NCBI GenBank assembly: GCA_012401045.1
Contig: GCA_012401045.1_4704.1
From: a phage
Length of the DNA stretch: 64,000 nt
Strand: one strand, 5' to 3'
Below, in pieces: positions 5,244-52,282 of this stretch (position 1 is the first letter of the stretch; the number at the start of each line of letters is the position of its first letter). A program made the translations under genes and the position numbers. A model generated the notes under the pieces. It did no database searches and was not told the origin of the DNA. It saw only the letters and a list, made by a program, of their open reading frames with translations.

Positions 5244-5308
5244 AAATCCTCCAAAAGTTATTTAGTCTGTCTACATCATCTCGTATATCTGTTAAAAAAG
5301 AAGGACGG

Positions 5309-5346
5309 CATAAAAAAGAACCGATCCAGCCGAAGCCAGATCGGTT
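5309..5346 (-). terminator. Rho-independent terminator with UUCG loop, followed by TTTTTTATGCCGT
   Basis: AACCGATC (5319..5326) pairs with GATCGGTT (5339..5346). On the minus strand the hairpin is followed by CTTTTTTATGCCGT (TATG at 5312..5309). Confidence 0.75.
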
Positions 5347-9352: not shown

Positions 9353-9384
9353 ACGGCATAAAAGCCTGCCCCGAAGGACAGGCT
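9353..9384 (-). terminator. Terminator with UUCG loop, followed by TTTTATGCCGT
   Basis: The minus strand reads AGCCTGTCCTTCGGGGCAGGCT TTTATGCCGT. TATG (9360..9357) is 18 nt before ATG 9340. Confidence 0.75.
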
Positions 9385-9393
9385 CGATAGAAC

Positions 9394-9594
9394 TTAACGA
9401 CCATCCAATTTCAATGAAGGATGGTTGACGATATGTGCGTGTTTTGCTGGGTCATATAGCTGATATGGAAAATAGCCATGCCATTGACGGCCTTGGCATT
9501 TCGTACACAGGAACTGACCAACACCTTGTCGATTCTCGTAAGCGAGTTCGGTACTATCAACATGACCGCAACGTTCGCAGATAAACAGCGACAT
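9394..9594 (-). CDS. Small zinc-ribbon protein (66 aa)
   Basis: Two CxxC pairs: CERCGH ... CTKCQG. Confidence 0.65.
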   Translation of the reverse strand: MSLFICERCGHVDSTELAYENRQGVGQFLCTKCQGRQWHGYFPYQLYDPAKHAHIVNHPSLKLDGR

Positions 9595-9631
9595 AGCGCA
9601 TCCCCATTCACTTGAACCTTTTGGTTCGGCA

Positions 9632-10612
9632 TTAGAAAAGCAAGAAACCGCTATTCTTCGCTTCCGCTACAGTTTCGTCACCAACTTTCGGTGCCTGTTG
9701 ACGCGCGTTACGATGTTCGATGTAACGTTTCGCTTCGTCAGCGATTTGTTTGATAATACCCCCTAAACGATCGGTACTTAAAACAAACGACGTCGCTTCA
9801 CGAATTGGGCTGCTTTCAGGCACAAAACCATCGCAGCTGTAAATAGCGCTAACGCCCATGACTTTTGTCGCGTCTTTCGGATAAAGCGTACAGAAAGCAA
9901 TCGGGCTATCGTTCTCTTTCGTCCAATCGTATCCCATGAACGTATTCAGTTCGGTGATCGTTGGTTCCAAACCGGTAACACGTGGATGGTTTAAGAAGTT
10001 TTCCAGGTCGGCGCTGTCAAGACGACGGTTCTCGCCAGAAAACAGAACACAAAGCTGGCTAATAACAACCTGCACGTCCAGGTTGACATCCTGCTCCGAT
10101 TTCCCATTTTCGCCATTCATGTGATAGCTAACAATCACTGGACGTTTCAACCCTTCTGCAGCCGCCATCAGTCCTTTGAAGGTGCGATCGGCGTTGATCG
10201 TTTGACGCTCATCATCGAACGAGGCAACGATGCAACACACCACACGTTCACCACGTTCCAGCAGGTTAGCAACCAACGCAGGACCTGCAACAGAACCTGA
10301 ACCACCGCTCAGACTAAAGACCACGATATTAAATTTACCTGGCGTATGCTTATTCAGAATACCCGGGATTTGTGAACAGATCAGTTCAGCGTTCTCATCA
10401 CGCTTCTTACCAGAACCGTCTAACTCACGACCGGCTGCATCTTTAAAGATGTAAATATGATCGTCACCCAGTGTGCTATCGCGTAGGTTAGCGCGGCTGG
10501 TATCGACATACGTCATGCTGTGTAATCCTTTCGCGACTTCGCCTTCAAATGCTGAGCCGATTTCGCCACCACAACCACCGACAGCCCAAATATGTACTTG
10601 GTTCTCTTGCAT
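9632..10612 (-). CDS. phuZ: PhuZ-type phage tubulin
   Basis: 326 aa. The N-terminal AVGGCGGEIG is like the tubulin T1 loop. VVFSLSGGSGSVAGP is like the tubulin signature GGGTGSG. Overall layout and the C-terminal tail match PhuZ as I remember it from 201phi2-1. SD AGGAG. Confidence 0.8.
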   Translation of the reverse strand: MQENQVHIWAVGGCGGEIGSAFEGEVAKGLHSMTYVDTSRANLRDSTLGDDHIYIFKDAAGRELDGSGKKRDENAELICSQIPGILNKHTPGKFNIVVFSLSGGSGSVAGPALVANLLERGERVVCCIVASFDDERQTINADRTFKGLMAAAEGLKRPVIVSYHMNGENGKSEQDVNLDVQVVISQLCVLFSGENRRLDSADLENFLNHPRVTGLEPTITELNTFMGYDWTKENDSPIAFCTLYPKDATKVMGVSAIYSCDGFVPESSPIREATSFVLSTDRLGGIIKQIADEAKRYIEHRNARQQAPKVGDETVAEAKNSGFLLF

Positions 10613-10622
10613 GTGAACTCCT

Positions 10623-10634
10623 AACTTAATATGT
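10623..10634 (+). promoter_or_regulatory. AACTTAATATGT promoter-like motif
   Basis: An exact 12-mer is shared with 14622..14633 on the minus strand. In both cases TATG lies 41-44 nt upstream of the start codon. Confidence 0.5.
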
Positions 10635-10676
10635 ATTTAACGTACAATGAATCTTTCTTTGCTAAAGGGGTGACCC

Positions 10677-11519
10677 ATGGGTGCTATTGACTACAGTGTA
10701 GATCGTATCTGTCGTACAATACCGGCAGATATCCTACAGTATTGCTATATCGATCGTTACGACTGGCGTAATCGCTATCCTCGTTCCGTAGAAGACATCA
10801 TTACCGATTGGGTAATCCGTAAACGGGTTATCGGCGACATCGATATCTACGGGGGACTACAAACCGTTATTCCCCTTGATGATGCAGGTGTCACAATCGA
10901 AGAAGTCACCATTAACTGTTATGTTTTCCACATTCCGTTGGAAGCCACACAGGGACGTTATATCACGTCCGCATTATCCATTATTTCAGGGAGCGTGAAC
11001 AACTACGGAATAAACTATAACGGGCAATGGGGCGCTTTCAACCAAACCCAATTTCAACGTCAGCTTTGTGGGTGGAACCCCGCAAGCAACACGTTACAGC
11101 AAGGGATGAACGCGTTCGGTCCCATGAACGTTCTTAGTACAGCCAACGTTGATATCATCGCCCCTAACACCATCATGGTGAACAACGTCACGCCTGTACA
11201 ATTTCCCCTGAGCCTACGCTGTTTCCTTGCCCACGATCCGGAACTTACCAACCTCAGCATGGAGGTTTGGAACGACTTCTACAAACTCTGTTTATACGCC
11301 ACGCAAAGTGACATCTACAACAGAACCGTTATCCGTCTCGATAGAGGTGTTACAGCACAAGGACAAGAAGTCGGTGCATTCAAGGAATACATCGATCGCT
11401 TTGCTGATGCTGAAAACACATATCAGGAATTCCTGAACGAAACGTGGGCAGGCGTTGCTGCCTGGAACGATCCGCAAACTAAACGTCGCGCCATTCGACT
11501 ACAAACCGGTTACTTCTGA
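10677..11519 (+). CDS. Hypothetical protein (280 aa)
   Basis: Clean ORF preceded by AAAGGGG. No motif recognised. Confidence 0.75.
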   Translation: MGAIDYSVDRICRTIPADILQYCYIDRYDWRNRYPRSVEDIITDWVIRKRVIGDIDIYGGLQTVIPLDDAGVTIEEVTINCYVFHIPLEATQGRYITSALSIISGSVNNYGINYNGQWGAFNQTQFQRQLCGWNPASNTLQQGMNAFGPMNVLSTANVDIIAPNTIMVNNVTPVQFPLSLRCFLAHDPELTNLSMEVWNDFYKLCLYATQSDIYNRTVIRLDRGVTAQGQEVGAFKEYIDRFADAENTYQEFLNETWAGVAAWNDPQTKRRAIRLQTGYF

Positions 11520-12046
11520 TTAACGACAGCTTCCTCCCTCGGTGTTTTCGAGGGAGGTATTTGCCGTTTAAACACTTTCAGCACGTTCGCAAATTCAGCG
11601 GCAATAATACAGGCCGAGGTTGATAGCTTATTACTGAAAATGAGATCGTCCGGTAAACAATCGAACTGAATACCGTATTGCGTCTTTGTCTCATCAACGA
11701 TCAATGACGGTGTCGATCTTGTCTTCGCGATGTCGGTGATATACAAACGTAGAAATAATTCACCGTCTTCGCTATCCATAAAACGATAGGCGTTACCAGA
11801 AAACGCAACACATGGCGTAACGATAAATTGAACACGATCGTCGGTCGGATGGATATTTAACCAACGTTCGATATCATTACTACTCACATTTCGCATATTT
11901 ACTACGGTAAAAGCAAATAGCGTATCGTGATGTTTGGAATAATGCAGCACGTACGCCGCACCTTTCTTTTTGTGAATCCCTTCAATGTATTCTATTGTCG
12001 TATAGCCGGATTTATATAGCTTTACTTGCGGTTTATCACTCATCAT
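11510..12046 (-). CDS. Hypothetical protein (178 aa; start at ATGA overlap)
   Basis: MMSDKPQV starts at 12046 and overlaps the TGA of the upstream gene. The track's longer N-terminus lies inside that gene. Confidence 0.65.
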   Translation of the reverse strand: MMSDKPQVKLYKSGYTTIEYIEGIHKKKGAAYVLHYSKHHDTLFAFTVVNMRNVSSNDIERWLNIHPTDDRVQFIVTPCVAFSGNAYRFMDSEDGELFLRLYITDIAKTRSTPSLIVDETKTQYGIQFDCLPDDLIFSNKLSTSACIIAAEFANVLKVFKRQIPPSKTPREEAVVNQK

Positions 12047-12342
12047 AACAACCCTTCCCGTTTCATCGCGGCACGCATACTTGCGTAAAGCGCATTCTTC
12101 ATTGCACCCGGACGCAACGGATAACAAATCTCATATCGACGTCCTTGTTTTACAGCAATTTTCCTTCCATTCAGAAACAACGTGCCATTATCCAGCAACA
12201 ACTCACCTTGTAGTACCATGAGTCCTGCTTTAACATGACGTCCTTCTTCTTTCGTTAAGACCTTATAGCCGTGTTTATCCAATAACCACAATTCGTAGAT
12301 ACCATGCGCAGCCTTCGGCATTACTTTCTTCTTCGTCGTCAT
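12043..12342 (-). CDS. Hypothetical protein (99 aa)
   Basis: ORF with protein-like composition in an operon-like array. Confidence 0.65.
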   Translation of the reverse strand: MTTKKKVMPKAAHGIYELWLLDKHGYKVLTKEEGRHVKAGLMVLQGELLLDNGTLFLNGRKIAVKQGRRYEICYPLRPGAMKNALYASMRAAMKREGLL

Positions 12343-12354
12343 GGAAGATCCTCC

Positions 12355-12729
12355 TTAAACTCCTTGTCGGATCATCACCAACCGGAGCATGTTGTATTCC
12401 AATGTAGCGCTTTCTAATTCGAATTCATATCGATACCAGAAATTCGGCTCTAATTGACCTACAACACATTTACGAACATCTGTCTGCACCTTCCTCGACA
12501 ACACCTGTAACAGTTGTGTTATCTCCGGCTTGAAGTAATGCGCCAAACCTAACTGATCAGAATAAAACAGGCCACAATCAAAGATGGCCTGTAAAATAAC
12601 ATATTCAACCATCAGGTGACGCGCATCGGGGTCAGGGAATGGCGAACGTAAAGCGAGATCTAACACATCGACGATTGGGCCGACATAAATGGCGGCACGG
12701 TACTCACGAATAACACTGATGTTATCCAT
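12355..12729 (-). CDS. Hypothetical protein (124 aa)
   Basis: ORF in the same array. Confidence 0.65.
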   Translation of the reverse strand: MDNISVIREYRAAIYVGPIVDVLDLALRSPFPDPDARHLMVEYVILQAIFDCGLFYSDQLGLAHYFKPEITQLLQVLSRKVQTDVRKCVVGQLEPNFWYRYEFELESATLEYNMLRLVMIRQGV

Positions 12730-12742
12730 GATAACCTATTCG

Positions 12743-13567
12743 TTAACTGTCGCTTTCTGACGTATCGACGTAGTTGAAAATACGATCCCGTAAACACTCG
12801 TAACGAGGCAACGCGCTAAGAATGATCATCTTCAACTGCATCGCGATCGATACACGTTCTTCATCCGATGCATCGTCTCCCCATTTACCCGGCTTAACCT
12901 GAATGGGTTCGTGCGGATCCTGCGGGAATATAAAGCTTAACAACAGATAATCCGTGCGGAACTCCCACACTTCTCGACCGTCGTTATCGGTTTCCTTACG
13001 CAACGTGAAGAGTTGACGTTCGGTGGTTGGATCCAACATCAGCGGTCGGCCACGAACAATCTCCAGTTTACGTGGGCTGACGAACGTCGTACGTTCAGGA
13101 AGGTATTTTTCAACATCATCCGTATCCAACAAGAACAAAATGATGTCGTCGAAATACTTCGGTGCGTACGTGTGTATCGGTTCACCGTCGCTATACGAAG
13201 AGATCTCTTGAAGTATTGGTGTCTTACACGAAAAGTTCTGGCATGAGCCGCGGGTGATCGGTAAGGTGGTCCATTGATGTTCTGTAGACAATTCAACAGG
13301 CACTAACGGATAGTCATCAATGAAAACCACACACGTTGTACTAATGGGTATTCTTCCATCATTACCGGGTTCAAAAACCAAACGTATCTTACCGGTAATC
13401 AACGCCATCTCATCTGGCATTAAATGGCTTGCTGAACGGGCAAGTCTGAAACCGGCCGCCTGTTTATAAGGTTCGGGTTTATAGCCACGGACAATAAGAG
13501 AGACATCCGCAAGTTCAACGCTCACGAACGCATCTTTGGTGTCTTCATTGTTCGTCGTTAACGTCAT
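12743..13567 (-). CDS. Hypothetical protein (274 aa)
   Basis: Long ORF; no motif recognised. Confidence 0.75.
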   Translation of the reverse strand: MTLTTNNEDTKDAFVSVELADVSLIVRGYKPEPYKQAAGFRLARSASHLMPDEMALITGKIRLVFEPGNDGRIPISTTCVVFIDDYPLVPVELSTEHQWTTLPITRGSCQNFSCKTPILQEISSYSDGEPIHTYAPKYFDDIILFLLDTDDVEKYLPERTTFVSPRKLEIVRGRPLMLDPTTERQLFTLRKETDNDGREVWEFRTDYLLLSFIFPQDPHEPIQVKPGKWGDDASDEERVSIAMQLKMIILSALPRYECLRDRIFNYVDTSESDS

Positions 13568-14582
13568 TGTTCATTTTCTCCATTGCAACGAATCGTTCAA
13601 GCTCGCGTAATAAACGCTCTTTTAACGCAGGATCAACTTCCGGAGCATGTTTATCGCGATACCATTCGGTCCCGTTGTATTGCAGGCTAACATGCCATGT
13701 TCCTAACGGGCTTTCCTCTGCAGCGGCGATGAAATTCTTAACGCCGGTTTTGGTAGGATACTCCATGATAGGAATAGCCTGCTTCAGATCCATTACGGTA
13801 AGATCCTGGAAGTTATAATCCAGGAGCGTTAATGCACGTTTGTCGCGTAACAGTAACCCGCAATCCAAGATAGTGAAATCGATACCCCAAAATTGTAGCT
13901 TACCGCCCGTACTGATAGGAATATGACCGCGATAAACCGCGAGATAAATCTCACCTTTATCGGTTTCTTTATTGTATCCTGCGATGAATGCTGCGGTAAT
14001 TAACGGCTGATCGCCTTTCGCAAAGAAAACAGGATGCGTACGATAAAGCCAATCATTACGGATTAAATCGGATACCTGACCTAAACGTGCCGTGGGCACC
14101 ATTGTCGATCCTAAGTCACTATTACTAACTTCGAATTGGTAATATTCAAACAGAACACCGTCGACTTCTTCTTTAGCGTATGGTTCACGATCCGGATTAG
14201 CGAGTATATAACGCAACTTATTATCGATTTCGGCTACGCGTTCCTCATGGGTATCCATAAGGCTAGTGACGACGAAAGCAGCCAGATTACGTACGCTAAG
14301 GAACACGTCGTCTTTCTCCTGGTCGCTTAGTCCTTCTTCATCTGCTAGCGTTGTCCAATGCAGTGGTCCCTCCACCATTTTCAACCATTTGTCTTCACGC
14401 TCTGGGTAAACAAAGGGCTTGTGTACAGGAACGCTGGTATGCTGCACACGCAATAGTAACGAACAAGGGGATTGCATTATCGACTCCCATGGCACTATAC
14501 CACTCGTGACAGCGATGACGTGACGATTAAGAACAAGAGAAGCTGAATAAGTAATGTTATCTAATCCTGGTAATTGATCCAT
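13545..14582 (-). CDS. Hypothetical protein (345 aa)
   Basis: Long ORF; first gene downstream of the 308-nt AT-rich intergenic region. Confidence 0.75.
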   Translation of the reverse strand: MDQLPGLDNITYSASLVLNRHVIAVTSGIVPWESIMQSPCSLLLRVQHTSVPVHKPFVYPEREDKWLKMVEGPLHWTTLADEEGLSDQEKDDVFLSVRNLAAFVVTSLMDTHEERVAEIDNKLRYILANPDREPYAKEEVDGVLFEYYQFEVSNSDLGSTMVPTARLGQVSDLIRNDWLYRTHPVFFAKGDQPLITAAFIAGYNKETDKGEIYLAVYRGHIPISTGGKLQFWGIDFTILDCGLLLRDKRALTLLDYNFQDLTVMDLKQAIPIMEYPTKTGVKNFIAAAEESPLGTWHVSLQYNGTEWYRDKHAPEVDPALKERLLRELERFVAMEKMNNDVNDEQ

Positions 14583-14621
14583 GATAGAAATCCTTAGTAT
14601 GTTTGATATGTTGTTTAATTA

Positions 14622-14633
14622 ACATATTAAGTT
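14622..14633 (-). promoter_or_regulatory. AACTTAATATGT promoter-like motif (minus-strand copy)
   Basis: The reverse complement of ACATATTAAGTT is identical to 10623..10634. TATG lies 41 nt upstream of ATG 14582. Confidence 0.5.
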
Positions 14634-14837
14634 TAAAAGAGGTTATGTTTTACGTATTGTTAATAACGTATTCTTATCTCTATTAAGTTATGTTCTATCT
14701 AAAGATAGTAAACAGATATAATGCTCCCCACCTCCCCATTCTCCCAAGTAATACTGGCCTACCGGCTCTCTCCTTTTTAAGGGAGAGAGTAAGCATTCAG
14801 TATTGCTCAAATGAATAAGCAAAACAGTATAAACTTA

Positions 14838-14861
14838 CCGTCTCGAGTTATCTCGAGACGG
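14838..14861 (-). terminator. Perfect 10-bp stem-loop after gene 14891..15244
   Basis: CCGTCTCGAG ttat CTCGAGACGG. The minus-strand downstream tract is GTAAGTTTATACTGTTTTG. TACGCCGT overlaps the 5' arm on the minus strand (14865..14858). Confidence 0.5.
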
Positions 14862-14890
14862 CGTAGTAGTATCTGTTTATCTCTTTTATG

Positions 14891-15244
14891 CTAACAGCCT
14901 ATTTCTGCATGAACCTTTAACGATTCGAATACATCTTGCTTCTTTATCATCGTCTTGTATAAACGTGATTGAGCAATGATCTTTATCCATTGTTGTGGAT
15001 CGCGTAAATTCACATTTTCAAAACGGGGTGGGGTATTATCTCCGTCGAGTCGGATATACCCTAAGAGCAATCCTTCATGGTCTCCTCGACGGATTTCGAT
15101 ATGCGGTTTGAGGAAGACATGATTGTCTGGTGGATACCAGCTTACGGTGTAGTAATGGTTTCCTGAAACAACGAATTCGTGAACGGCTTTTGTCTCATCG
15201 TCAATGACCGCATTTACGCTGGGAATCATTAATTTTTGAAGCAT
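14891..15244 (-). CDS. Hypothetical protein (117 aa)
   Basis: ORF with GGAGG 10 nt upstream. An alternative start at 15229 gives a TAATG overlap. Confidence 0.65.
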   Translation of the reverse strand: MLQKLMIPSVNAVIDDETKAVHEFVVSGNHYYTVSWYPPDNHVFLKPHIEIRRGDHEGLLLGYIRLDGDNTPPRFENVNLRDPQQWIKIIAQSRLYKTMIKKQDVFESLKVHAEIGC

Positions 15245-15828
15245 GGGACATAAACCTCCATCAACATCGCATAAAGCGCACCAAGCCCATGCAGGACTTG
15301 GTTAGGTGCAAAGGTCGGAGTGTAGCATACTTGTTCGGTTGGTGCTTGTTGACGTAAGTCTAACGGATCTCCGTTGATAAGCATCTGCAGGAGATCAGCA
15401 TCATCTTGCAATGTGTCTTCATCGATATACGCATCAACACAAAGCAGTCGGTGTAACTGTTCTGGTTTAATTGAAATACCTACAACCATGCAGTTGTTGT
15501 AGGTGGCGTTGTCCAGAAAGAAGTGAATGACGCCCGCTTGAGGATCGCCACCGTAGTGGAGCCAACGCGTAAAACCAGCCGACATCATCCATAGCGGGTT
15601 GTGTTGTAACGCACTGACGACGCGGGTCTCGAAATCCAAACCAAACTTCTGGAAGATTGCGCCCATCTGGAAACGATCTTCATCGAGACGGTAACGGAAT
15701 ATACAGGCATCCGATCCCGTTGAGTTATCATACACCGAAAGATACCCACGATGGATTTCCACGGTAACATTGTTGTCGTCAAGCGTGGCGCTCGCAACGC
15801 CGTTAGAAAAGGTTGGAACAAAGCTCAT
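15229..15828 (-). CDS. Hypothetical protein (199 aa)
   Basis: ATGA overlap with the upstream gene at 15825..15828. Confidence 0.7.
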   Translation of the reverse strand: MSFVPTFSNGVASATLDDNNVTVEIHRGYLSVYDNSTGSDACIFRYRLDEDRFQMGAIFQKFGLDFETRVVSALQHNPLWMMSAGFTRWLHYGGDPQAGVIHFFLDNATYNNCMVVGISIKPEQLHRLLCVDAYIDEDTLQDDADLLQMLINGDPLDLRQQAPTEQVCYTPTFAPNQVLHGLGALYAMLMEVYVPCFKN

Positions 15829-16378: not shown

Positions 16379-16413
16379 CATTGCCTTCCGCGAGTGTAAT
16401 CAGGAAGGTAATG
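16379..16413 (-). promoter_or_regulatory. 11-bp hairpin sequestering the SD of gene 15825..16376
   Basis: The minus strand reads CATTACCTTCC-N13-GGAAGGCAATG, then CA, then ATG. The stem has one G.U pair. Confidence 0.4.
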
Positions 16414-31611: not shown

Positions 31612-31653
31612 ACGGCATAAAAAGTACCTCCTTACCCATGTGGGTAAGGAGGT
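31612..31653 (-). terminator. 13-bp terminator, followed by TTTTTATGCCGT
   Basis: ACCTCCTTACCCA tg TGGGTAAGGAGGT (31626..31653). On the minus strand this is followed by ACTTTTTATGCCGT (TATG at 31619..31616). Confidence 0.8.
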
Positions 31654-40345: not shown

Positions 40346-41992
40346 TTAGGCTCCACGAGGTCCCGTTAAGTTGCGTAATAGGAACGCAACCGTATCGTAA
40401 CCAATATCGATGTTGAATTTATTTTTACCACTTACCCAGAAAGCTCGCTTCTTGTGCGAGTTGGTAATTTCGTCAATAGCTTCCATGGAATAAAGAACGT
40501 TAACCGAGACCGTATCACCATCAAAGTCCCCACCAAGTCCGGCGAGGTATGGCGCAGGGACAATAGTCGTTTCTACGAACGAAGCATTAGGTAACCAGTC
40601 GGGGTATTCCCATGCGATAAATCGTTCATCCGTTATTGGTTCCCAGTTACTATCCAGTTCGGTTTTCGGTTTTGCGGCGACGGTTGTACGTGCGTAACAG
40701 GTTAACGGGATAACGGATTGCATACCTGATACCGGATAACGTGTTACCATCGCAGCCAGGTTATTCCAGTACTTATATCCGGCAATATAGATAAGCTCGG
40801 TGTAAGTAATGGGGTGAACATCCGCGCCAGGTTTATTCAACATCTCCGGGGGTAATTCACTCATGCCACGGAATAACCGAAACGAATCGTTGTTCACATA
40901 GACGAGGCAAAGATATCGTCCATTGACCATGATAGGCTCGTTACGCACGCCAGGATCGCTTAAGGTGTTCAGTAAACGTTCTATTCCGTCCCATGTTGTA
41001 AAGTCATCGATGGTGTCTGGATCAAGCGTGACGCGCTCACGTTCCATCGTTTCGGTATCAGTAAGTTCAACTTCTGTAACATCACGGACAAATATTTCCT
41101 GCAAAATACCGGTACGTAACGCATGTTGCGTTACTGGGAGAGCGGCTTTACTCATCTGGTATAACCCTAACTGAACCGCGGTACAGGAAGGCTGGTTAGG
41201 CGACCCTAATACCTCCGTTGTGGGGTTAATTGCCGAAATAACGTTACGGGTTGAGTTCCAAACGCGACGTGAACCAAACTTACCTTGGAAGATCCCTTTC
41301 TTACCCTGGAACATATCCAACAGTAAAGCGTAGATATCGTTGAATGTTCTCTGTAAGCTCCAGCGCTGGCCGTCGTAAACGGGATCGGAATAATCTTTTA
41401 ATCCATCAGGGACGGTGTTAGAAATTGCAAGGAAACGACGATACAACTCCGTGATTTCTTGCTCGCTTTCATACCCACCTTCTTTTACTTCTATTTCACG
41501 TAAGCCTGCAGGCAATACCAGTAAGTGACGGGTCATCGCTTTGAACATGTTCTCTTCGACAACTTTAATTCGTAGCTCTCGTTGAGCTGAACCCGTTGAA
41601 ACGAACTTGATATCCGCGACGTGTTGTGCAAAGAACCCGTATCCTGTTTGTCCTGTTAATGCATCAGACGCAACGAAGTCGCGTTGTTCGGGATCCCACC
41701 GAGCGTACGCCTTCCCCGACATGATATCGCCATAGAGGTGTTTTAATCGAATGAGACGGTCGTAAATGACAGGATGCAGGATTTCAACCTTGCATTCAAT
41801 CACCGCAAATCGACGGTCTCGATCTTCACTACCCGCACTACCAAAGATGGTGTAAGAATAGAAACCATCATCGTGGAAATTACCGGTGCTTGGGTCACGA
41901 ATGCTCATGCTCGTGATCTTGGGGAGAAAACGTAACTGCTGTTTATCGAGGTGTAAAATACTAATATTAAACGGCTCTCTGACTTTAGCCAT
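40346..41992 (-). CDS. Multisubunit RNAP beta' N-terminal fragment (contains the catalytic DFDGD loop)
   Basis: LAGLGGDFDGDTVSVNVL has DFDGD at 40528..40514, 55 aa before the stop. The start is chosen at MAKVREPF (ATG 41992, with AAGAGGAG upstream) rather than the track start at 42034. Confidence 0.8.
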   Translation of the reverse strand: MAKVREPFNISILHLDKQQLRFLPKITSMSIRDPSTGNFHDDGFYSYTIFGSAGSEDRDRRFAVIECKVEILHPVIYDRLIRLKHLYGDIMSGKAYARWDPEQRDFVASDALTGQTGYGFFAQHVADIKFVSTGSAQRELRIKVVEENMFKAMTRHLLVLPAGLREIEVKEGGYESEQEITELYRRFLAISNTVPDGLKDYSDPVYDGQRWSLQRTFNDIYALLLDMFQGKKGIFQGKFGSRRVWNSTRNVISAINPTTEVLGSPNQPSCTAVQLGLYQMSKAALPVTQHALRTGILQEIFVRDVTEVELTDTETMERERVTLDPDTIDDFTTWDGIERLLNTLSDPGVRNEPIMVNGRYLCLVYVNNDSFRLFRGMSELPPEMLNKPGADVHPITYTELIYIAGYKYWNNLAAMVTRYPVSGMQSVIPLTCYARTTVAAKPKTELDSNWEPITDERFIAWEYPDWLPNASFVETTIVPAPYLAGLGGDFDGDTVSVNVLYSMEAIDEITNSHKKRAFWVSGKNKFNIDIGYDTVAFLLRNLTGPRGA

Positions 41993-52245: not shown

Positions 52246-52282
52246 ACGGCATAAAGCCTACCCACACAATGGTGGGTAGGCT
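52246..52282 (-). terminator. 11-bp terminator, followed by TTTATGCCGT
   Basis: AGCCTACCCAC (52255..52265) pairs with GTGGGTAGGCT (52272..52282). The minus strand continues TTTATGCCGTATTTCTTTTTTC, and TATG (52253..52250) is ~35 nt before ATG 52216. Confidence 0.8.

Follow-up and report, generated by a model that had tools for sequence, protein, structure and literature searches.

A 12-mer shared by two gene leaders of a Goslar-like jumbo phage: probable phiKZ-type TATG start sites, not a new promoter class

An identical 12-mer, AACTTAATATGT, lies at similar distances upstream of two unrelated genes on opposite strands of a 64,000-nucleotide stretch of phage DNA (hereafter the window). Comparison with sister phages showed that only the TATG(T) end of this sequence is conserved, so that two ordinary TATG sites, and not a new promoter class, are the most likely explanation. 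By analogy with phage phiKZ, we consider it somewhat more probable than otherwise that both copies are ordinary phiKZ-type TATG start sites for the non-virion RNAP (nvRNAP) of the phage. The sequence-only reading that drew attention to the repeat had taken it for a third promoter flavour sharing the TATG core, possibly of a middle or late class. One part of that proposal, a TATG-centred start that precedes each gene by about 40 nt, is plausible, given the likeness to phiKZ, the positional enrichment of TATG and the presence of a neck gene behind one site; the other part, a separate 12-mer flavour, found no support.

The closest reference to the window is Escherichia phage vB_EcoM_Goslar, to which positions 9500-15500 are 97.4% identical, and over its full length the window runs collinear to Goslar 171225-237273, except for a 2051-bp segment that it does not contain. 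Judged by its sequence, the phage is a Goslar-like Escherichia coli jumbo phage of the nucleus-forming Chimalliviridae. The Goslar annotation contains several genes for fragments of the RNAP beta and beta' subunits; gp247 carries the label nvRNAP, with separate entries for the vRNAP subunits. By way of this annotation the phage counts among those with a non-virion multisubunit RNAP; the nvRNAP genes themselves lie outside the window and are known from Goslar, the 97%-identical reference genome. Seven Goslar-like genomes were compared: the window, Goslar, two contigs from IMG/VR (UViG 3300045988 and UViG 3300011560) and three from Logan (L027, L028 and L029). The segment missing from the window is the counterpart of Goslar 211748-213798 (2051 bp), absent at window positions ~40519-40527; in Goslar this region, flanked by genes for virion RNAP subunits, carries annotations for a group I intron and for the HNH homing endonuclease gp206. 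The window sequences that flank the missing segment form one unbroken 548-aa ORF (40346-41992, minus strand), which looks like an intron-less allele.

The repeat is real. The 12-mer occurs exactly at 10623..10634 on the plus strand (copy 1, site 1) and at 14622..14633 on the minus strand (copy 2, site 2), and these are the sole exact copies in the 64-kb window. The genes on opposite strands that were named as lying downstream, 10677..11519 (plus) and 13545..14582 (minus), are indeed there, with starts that agree with the Goslar annotation, and at both sites the TATG is on the coding strand upstream of its gene. The spacing is similar, as had been said: the G of TATG is 44 nt ahead of the start codon at copy 1 and 41 nt ahead at copy 2. 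The two downstream proteins are unrelated (BLASTP E = 7.6), and homology of the two downstream genes was thereby ruled out.

Copy 1 lies in a 64-nt divergent spacer between the gene for the tubulin PhuZ (Goslar gp234; 9632..10612, minus strand) and the portal/neck adaptor gene (Goslar HOV27_gp233; 10677..11519, plus strand), which encodes a virion structural protein with the Pfam domain DUF7484; cryo-EM has identified gp233 as a 12-copy portal/neck adaptor. The adaptor gene is a lone plus-strand gene amid a minus-strand cluster and must therefore have its own promoter. Since gp233 is a 12-copy neck protein, late expression would be expected, and the adaptor gene likely belongs to the late class. 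The TATG core of copy 1 occupies 10630..10633, and transcription is predicted to start at G10633 (Goslar 181857, plus strand), giving a 44-nt leader. A second AATATGTA occurs at 10589-10596 on the plus strand, 39 nt upstream of that in copy 1 and antisense within the PhuZ coding sequence; it is probably due to chance.

The location of copy 1 also raises the question of the opposite strand. Copy 1 is one base from the PhuZ Shine-Dalgarno sequence (CTCCT at 10617-10621, which is AGGAG on the minus strand) and 10 nt from the PhuZ start codon. One could thus envisage that copy 1 was shaped as ACATATTAAGTT, a part of the 5' leader and translation-initiation region of PhuZ, and that its likeness to copy 2 is incidental. 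No PhuZ promoter motif was found within the spacer, which argues that the PhuZ mRNA starts further upstream and includes the copy 1 sequence. However, positions in copy 1 vary among strains, so the sequence is not tightly constrained, and copy 2, which has no opposite-strand gene, is left unexplained. We regard this explanation as improbable, and it would in any case be compatible with a TATG start site at copy 1.

Copy 2 lies in a 308-nt spacer, past two hairpins behind the gp227 homologue. Its TATG core occupies 14623..14626 (minus strand), with a predicted start at G14623 (Goslar 185847, minus strand) and a predicted 41-nt leader. The gene that follows, the gp228 homologue (13545..14582, minus strand), is an ORFan confined to Goslar-like phages; neither Pfam nor PHROG gave a match for it, and it is the first of a co-directional run from gp228 to gp232. 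Mass spectrometry has detected gp228 in virions at ~1.4-3 copies each. Because it is located behind terminator-like hairpins and heads the gp228-gp232 run, gp228 needs a promoter of its own. PhuZ, which has been reported as early-expressed, follows the gp228 run on the minus strand and has no early-promoter motif of its own; if it were co-transcribed from site 2, a strict "late" label would not fit that site.

Several further features of this region were observed. A partial third copy of the 12-mer, AACTTAATAgag, matches at 9 of 12 positions and shares the spacer of copy 2, from which it lies 56 nt upstream (14678-14689, minus strand). This partial copy is unconserved, reading AACCTAATA or GTAAGTAATA in relatives. 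The N-terminal half of the gp228 homologue (14085-14582, minus strand) has only 58-73% nucleotide identity to two IMG/VR relatives, in which the intergenic region directly upstream is 97-100% identical. The boundary of this divergence is sharp and coincides with the start codon, which suggests that the N-terminal domain of gp228 is hypervariable or has been swapped by recombination.

We examined the genome for additional copies. In the 64-kb window, the 12-mer with up to two mismatches gave 6 matches against 6.9 expected, indicating that the loose pattern is not enriched. The 237-kb Goslar genome has one exact copy (site 2) and one single-mismatch copy (site 1), and a third is lacking at this level of one mismatch or fewer; matches with two mismatches fall in coding sequence or away from gene starts, and in Goslar, too, the loose pattern is not enriched. 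Thus the genome-wide motif scan, which the sequence-only reading had itself proposed, yielded no more copies at gene starts in Goslar at one mismatch or fewer, one of the two outcomes that this reading had named as speaking against it, and there is no sign of a distinct 12-bp family that recurs at gene starts. When motifs were sought de novo in 132-149 Goslar upstream regions, by k-mers and by expectation-maximization (EM), those that emerged were ribosome-binding sites, a terminator arm (GGGGAGGG), TTTATGCCGT and the early-promoter core TATATTAC, with nothing similar to the 12-mer. The 6- to 9-mers within the 12-mer showed no specific enrichment, reflecting only the general AT-richness of spacers, and EM seeded with the 12-mer on the Goslar upstream regions drifted to a noise-level or different motif, with no family emerging.

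The sister genomes were then compared at both sites. At site 1, AACTTAATATGT is present in the window and L029, AATTTAATATGT in Goslar and UViG 3300045988, AATTTACTATGT in UViG 3300011560 and L027, and AACTTGATATGT in L028. At site 2, the window, Goslar, UViG 3300045988 and L029 carry AACTTAATATGT, UViG 3300011560 carries GACTTAATATGT, and L027 and L028 carry AACCTAATATGT. The match between the two sites, taking the seven genomes in turn, is 12, 11, 11, 9, 9, 10 and 12 of 12; full identity is confined to the window strain and L029, and the other five of the seven genomes match at 9-11 positions. The 12-mer as a whole is therefore not conserved among these relatives, its match between the sites ranging from 9 to 12 of 12 over the 7 genomes. 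Within the 12-mer, it is positions 1, 3, 4, 6 and 7 that differ among these near-identical genomes. The 64-nt spacer of site 1 has five variable columns, of which three are located in the 7 nt before TATG (hypergeometric p = 0.008), and this substitution hotspot argues that the 5' part of the 12-mer is not under purifying selection. TATGT was unchanged in all 14 instances (7 genomes, both sites), although with an overall divergence of 1-3% this invariance is weak evidence of constraint. Among distant chimalliviruses, a sense TATG is found upstream of 8 of 14 adaptor orthologues at variable distances, which is too weak to count as conservation; in SL2, a phiKZ-like phage, the region upstream of the adaptor orthologue has no sense TATG.

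Site 2 showed an additional property. A block of ~50 nt (14607..14656, minus strand), roughly -33 to +17 relative to the predicted start, is near-unchanged in L027 and L028, and beyond it the further-upstream sequence of these two genomes has been replaced or interrupted, with many substitutions and a 58-nt insertion. This insertion, which is AT-rich, and the diverged hairpin region of L027 and L028 are bounded by the terminator hairpins of gp227 on one side and by the conserved TATG block on the other.

The likelihood of the coincidence was estimated in two ways. In ~3% of mononucleotide shuffles, two of the 35 upstream regions of the window shared a 12-mer at distances that differed by no more than 5 nt. 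When 39 upstream TATG sites were anchored on their TATG, identity at 8 of 8 flanking positions was obtained in 0.7-3% of null sets, and a 7 of 8 flank match, which is Goslar's own state, in 26-41%. The assertion that a chance repeat placed in this manner is unlikely thus holds in part: as a 12/12 match in this strain the repeat is marginally unusual (~3%, post hoc), but in the relatives it is unremarkable (26-41%). These numbers lend some weight to a pure coincidence, in which two AT-rich leaders have 12 nt in common by accident, transcription does not start at the TATGs and the repeat has no function. Also in agreement with coincidence are the existence of two copies only, the freely varying flanks among relatives (the Goslar match being 11/12) and the lack of an overall excess of TATG upstream of genes. 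Against it, TATG is the top positional tetramer exactly where both sites fall, 30-49 nt upstream, the adaptor gene and gp228 both need a promoter, and the site 2 block is kept in divergent relatives. Taking both sides together, we consider a functionless coincidence possible but unlikely.

The positional signal of TATG in Goslar was as follows. Of 66 sense TATGs in upstream regions, 24 precede the start codon by 30-49 nt (p = 6e-4; background fraction 0.188), and TATG ranks first among the 256 tetramers for enrichment in this interval, followed by the overlapping ATGT and GTAT. The association with positions just upstream of genes persisted when the hairpin-linked TATGCCG class, described below, was removed (18 of 49 TATGs at 30-49 nt, p = 0.0025). 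Overall, TATG is not over-represented in Goslar upstream regions (66 observed versus 73 expected), and its position alone is enriched. The antisense control, CATA, gave no peak at 30-49 nt. Mis-annotated start codons were ruled out as the cause of the peak, as AATG and GATG were unenriched; just 7 of the 24 peak TATGs are in frame, and in just 2 of these 7 is the frame open as far as the annotated start. The members of the peak include sites upstream of the major head, tail sheath, gp188 and adaptor genes, and by our reading of the annotation and the site list about half of the operon-leading structural genes have no nearby TATG. The 33 non-hairpin TATG sites share no flanking consensus; together with the strain-to-strain variation of the 12-mer flanks, this leaves no conserved sequence beyond TATG.

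These properties fit those of phiKZ late promoters. As described by Ceyssens 2014 (cited via PMC7598289), Yakunina 2015 (PMC4666361) and de Martin Garrido 2024 (PMC7618050), the phiKZ late promoter is T(-3)ATG(+1) and is read by a five-subunit nvRNAP. All four TATG bases were needed by the purified nvRNAP in vitro, and the neighbouring bases were substitutable. The late promoters of phiKZ have no flanking consensus, and its TATG promoters are known to require additional, undefined sequence. The sites described here likewise have a TATG with unconserved flanks a few tens of nucleotides upstream of genes, they belong to a nucleus-forming jumbo phage with homologous RNAPs, and one of their targets is a virion structural gene. 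There is also a parallel with the mutagenesis of phiKZ P119L: the flanks of the 12-mer tolerate substitution whereas the TATG does not, the substitutions here being natural variants. The two systems differ in that the +2 T of TATGT never varies here although +2 was not critical in phiKZ, and in that the starts have been mapped in phiKZ, whereas here they are predicted from sequence. No promoter or TSS map or 5'-end data for Goslar were found in the searchable literature.

Other promoter and terminator classes do not account for the two sites. No sigma-70 promoter (-35 and -10 hexamers with 16-18 nt spacing) directed toward either gene was detected at the 12-mer sites, and the overall scan gave 7 matches against 13.4 expected. 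A scan for intrinsic terminators revealed nothing relevant at the 12-mer sites, and Rfam gave no matches in the whole window. Goslar contains 13-14 copies of an early-promoter-like family, TTTCACGGCTATATTACCTnnGTGA, which has an AT-rich, phiKZ-like TATATTAC core. Its copies are all minus-strand, and one is ~70 nt ahead of the chimallin (chmA) gene; a position weight matrix located window copies at 1737, 30701 and 53405 (strong) and at 16398 (weak), all on the minus strand. Thus the family of phiKZ-type early vRNAP promoters is present in the genome, but the 12-mer sites do not match it: the weight matrix built from the Goslar copies of this early promoter, TTTCACGGCTATATTACCT..GTGA, found no match at either site, even at a permissive threshold.

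The strongest motif of Goslar intergenic regions is a GC-rich hairpin followed by TTTATGCCGT, with at least 15 clear copies in Goslar and window copies at 5306-5314, 9354-9362, 31613-31621 and 52247-52255 (all minus strand). The hairpins are terminator-like, with fold energies of -17 to -23 kcal/mol, the stem is often CCCTCCC...GGGAGGG, a conserved T(T)TATGC(C/T)GT tail follows immediately, and usually 30-70 nt separate the element from the gene that follows. Such an element could join a terminator to a TATG re-initiation site in a single cassette, or could signal termination to one particular polymerase. The 12-mer sites resemble this element in the TATG tetramer and in a similar distance to the downstream start codons; unlike it, they have no preceding GC-rich hairpin and no CCGT after TATG.

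We also considered whether the 12-mer, or a longer element that includes it, is a specific recognition site: it could define a separate subclass of middle or late promoters, or be the operator through which a phage DNA-binding protein controls the adaptor gene and the gp228 run together. Such a site would account for the exact identity and similar start-codon distance in the window strain and L029 (P ~0.01-0.03 for the 12/12 match) and for the ~50-nt conserved block at site 2, which exceeds TATG alone, and it would fit the need of phiKZ TATG promoters for additional undefined sequence. However, the lack of a third copy in 237 kb at one mismatch or fewer, the variation at positions 1, 3, 4, 6 and 7 with its hotspot at site 1 (p = 0.008), the drift of the 12-mer-seeded EM and the absence of specific enrichment of its sub-k-mers all argue against it. 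In addition, the site 2 block has no counterpart at site 1, where the corresponding sequence holds the PhuZ ribosome-binding site and start codon. We judge a specific site to be distinctly improbable. The third promoter flavour lacks support for the same reasons: there are two copies genome-wide, their identity decays in five of seven genomes, and neither a motif family nor a flank consensus was detected.

The reading we favour, two ordinary TATG start sites, predicts the following. By analogy with phiKZ, the G of each TATG would be the first transcribed base, namely G10633 on the plus strand and G14623 on the minus strand. Transcription would then produce an adaptor mRNA with a 44-nt leader and an mRNA of the gp228-gp232 run with a 41-nt leader. 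The functional core would be TATG, possibly TATGT. The 7 nt before TATG would be AT-rich sequence that is identical by chance in this strain and is itself unrecognised.

If both TATGs are real starts, the TATG late-promoter rule of phiKZ would extend to Goslarvirus. The 12-mer itself adds nothing beyond TATG, and the main value of the comparison is negative: a strain-specific coincidence need not enter the catalogues as a promoter class of its own. It is very improbable, in our estimate, that the 12-mer or the ~50-nt block is an extended element of an nvRNAP promoter subclass, or the target of a phage regulator, that couples the adaptor gene, gp228-gp232 and possibly PhuZ; were this so, it would be the first determinant beyond TATG for the non-virion RNAP promoters of chimalliviruses. 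Goslar is the E. coli model chimallivirus, and the two TATG sites provide concrete coordinates for comparison with RNA-seq.
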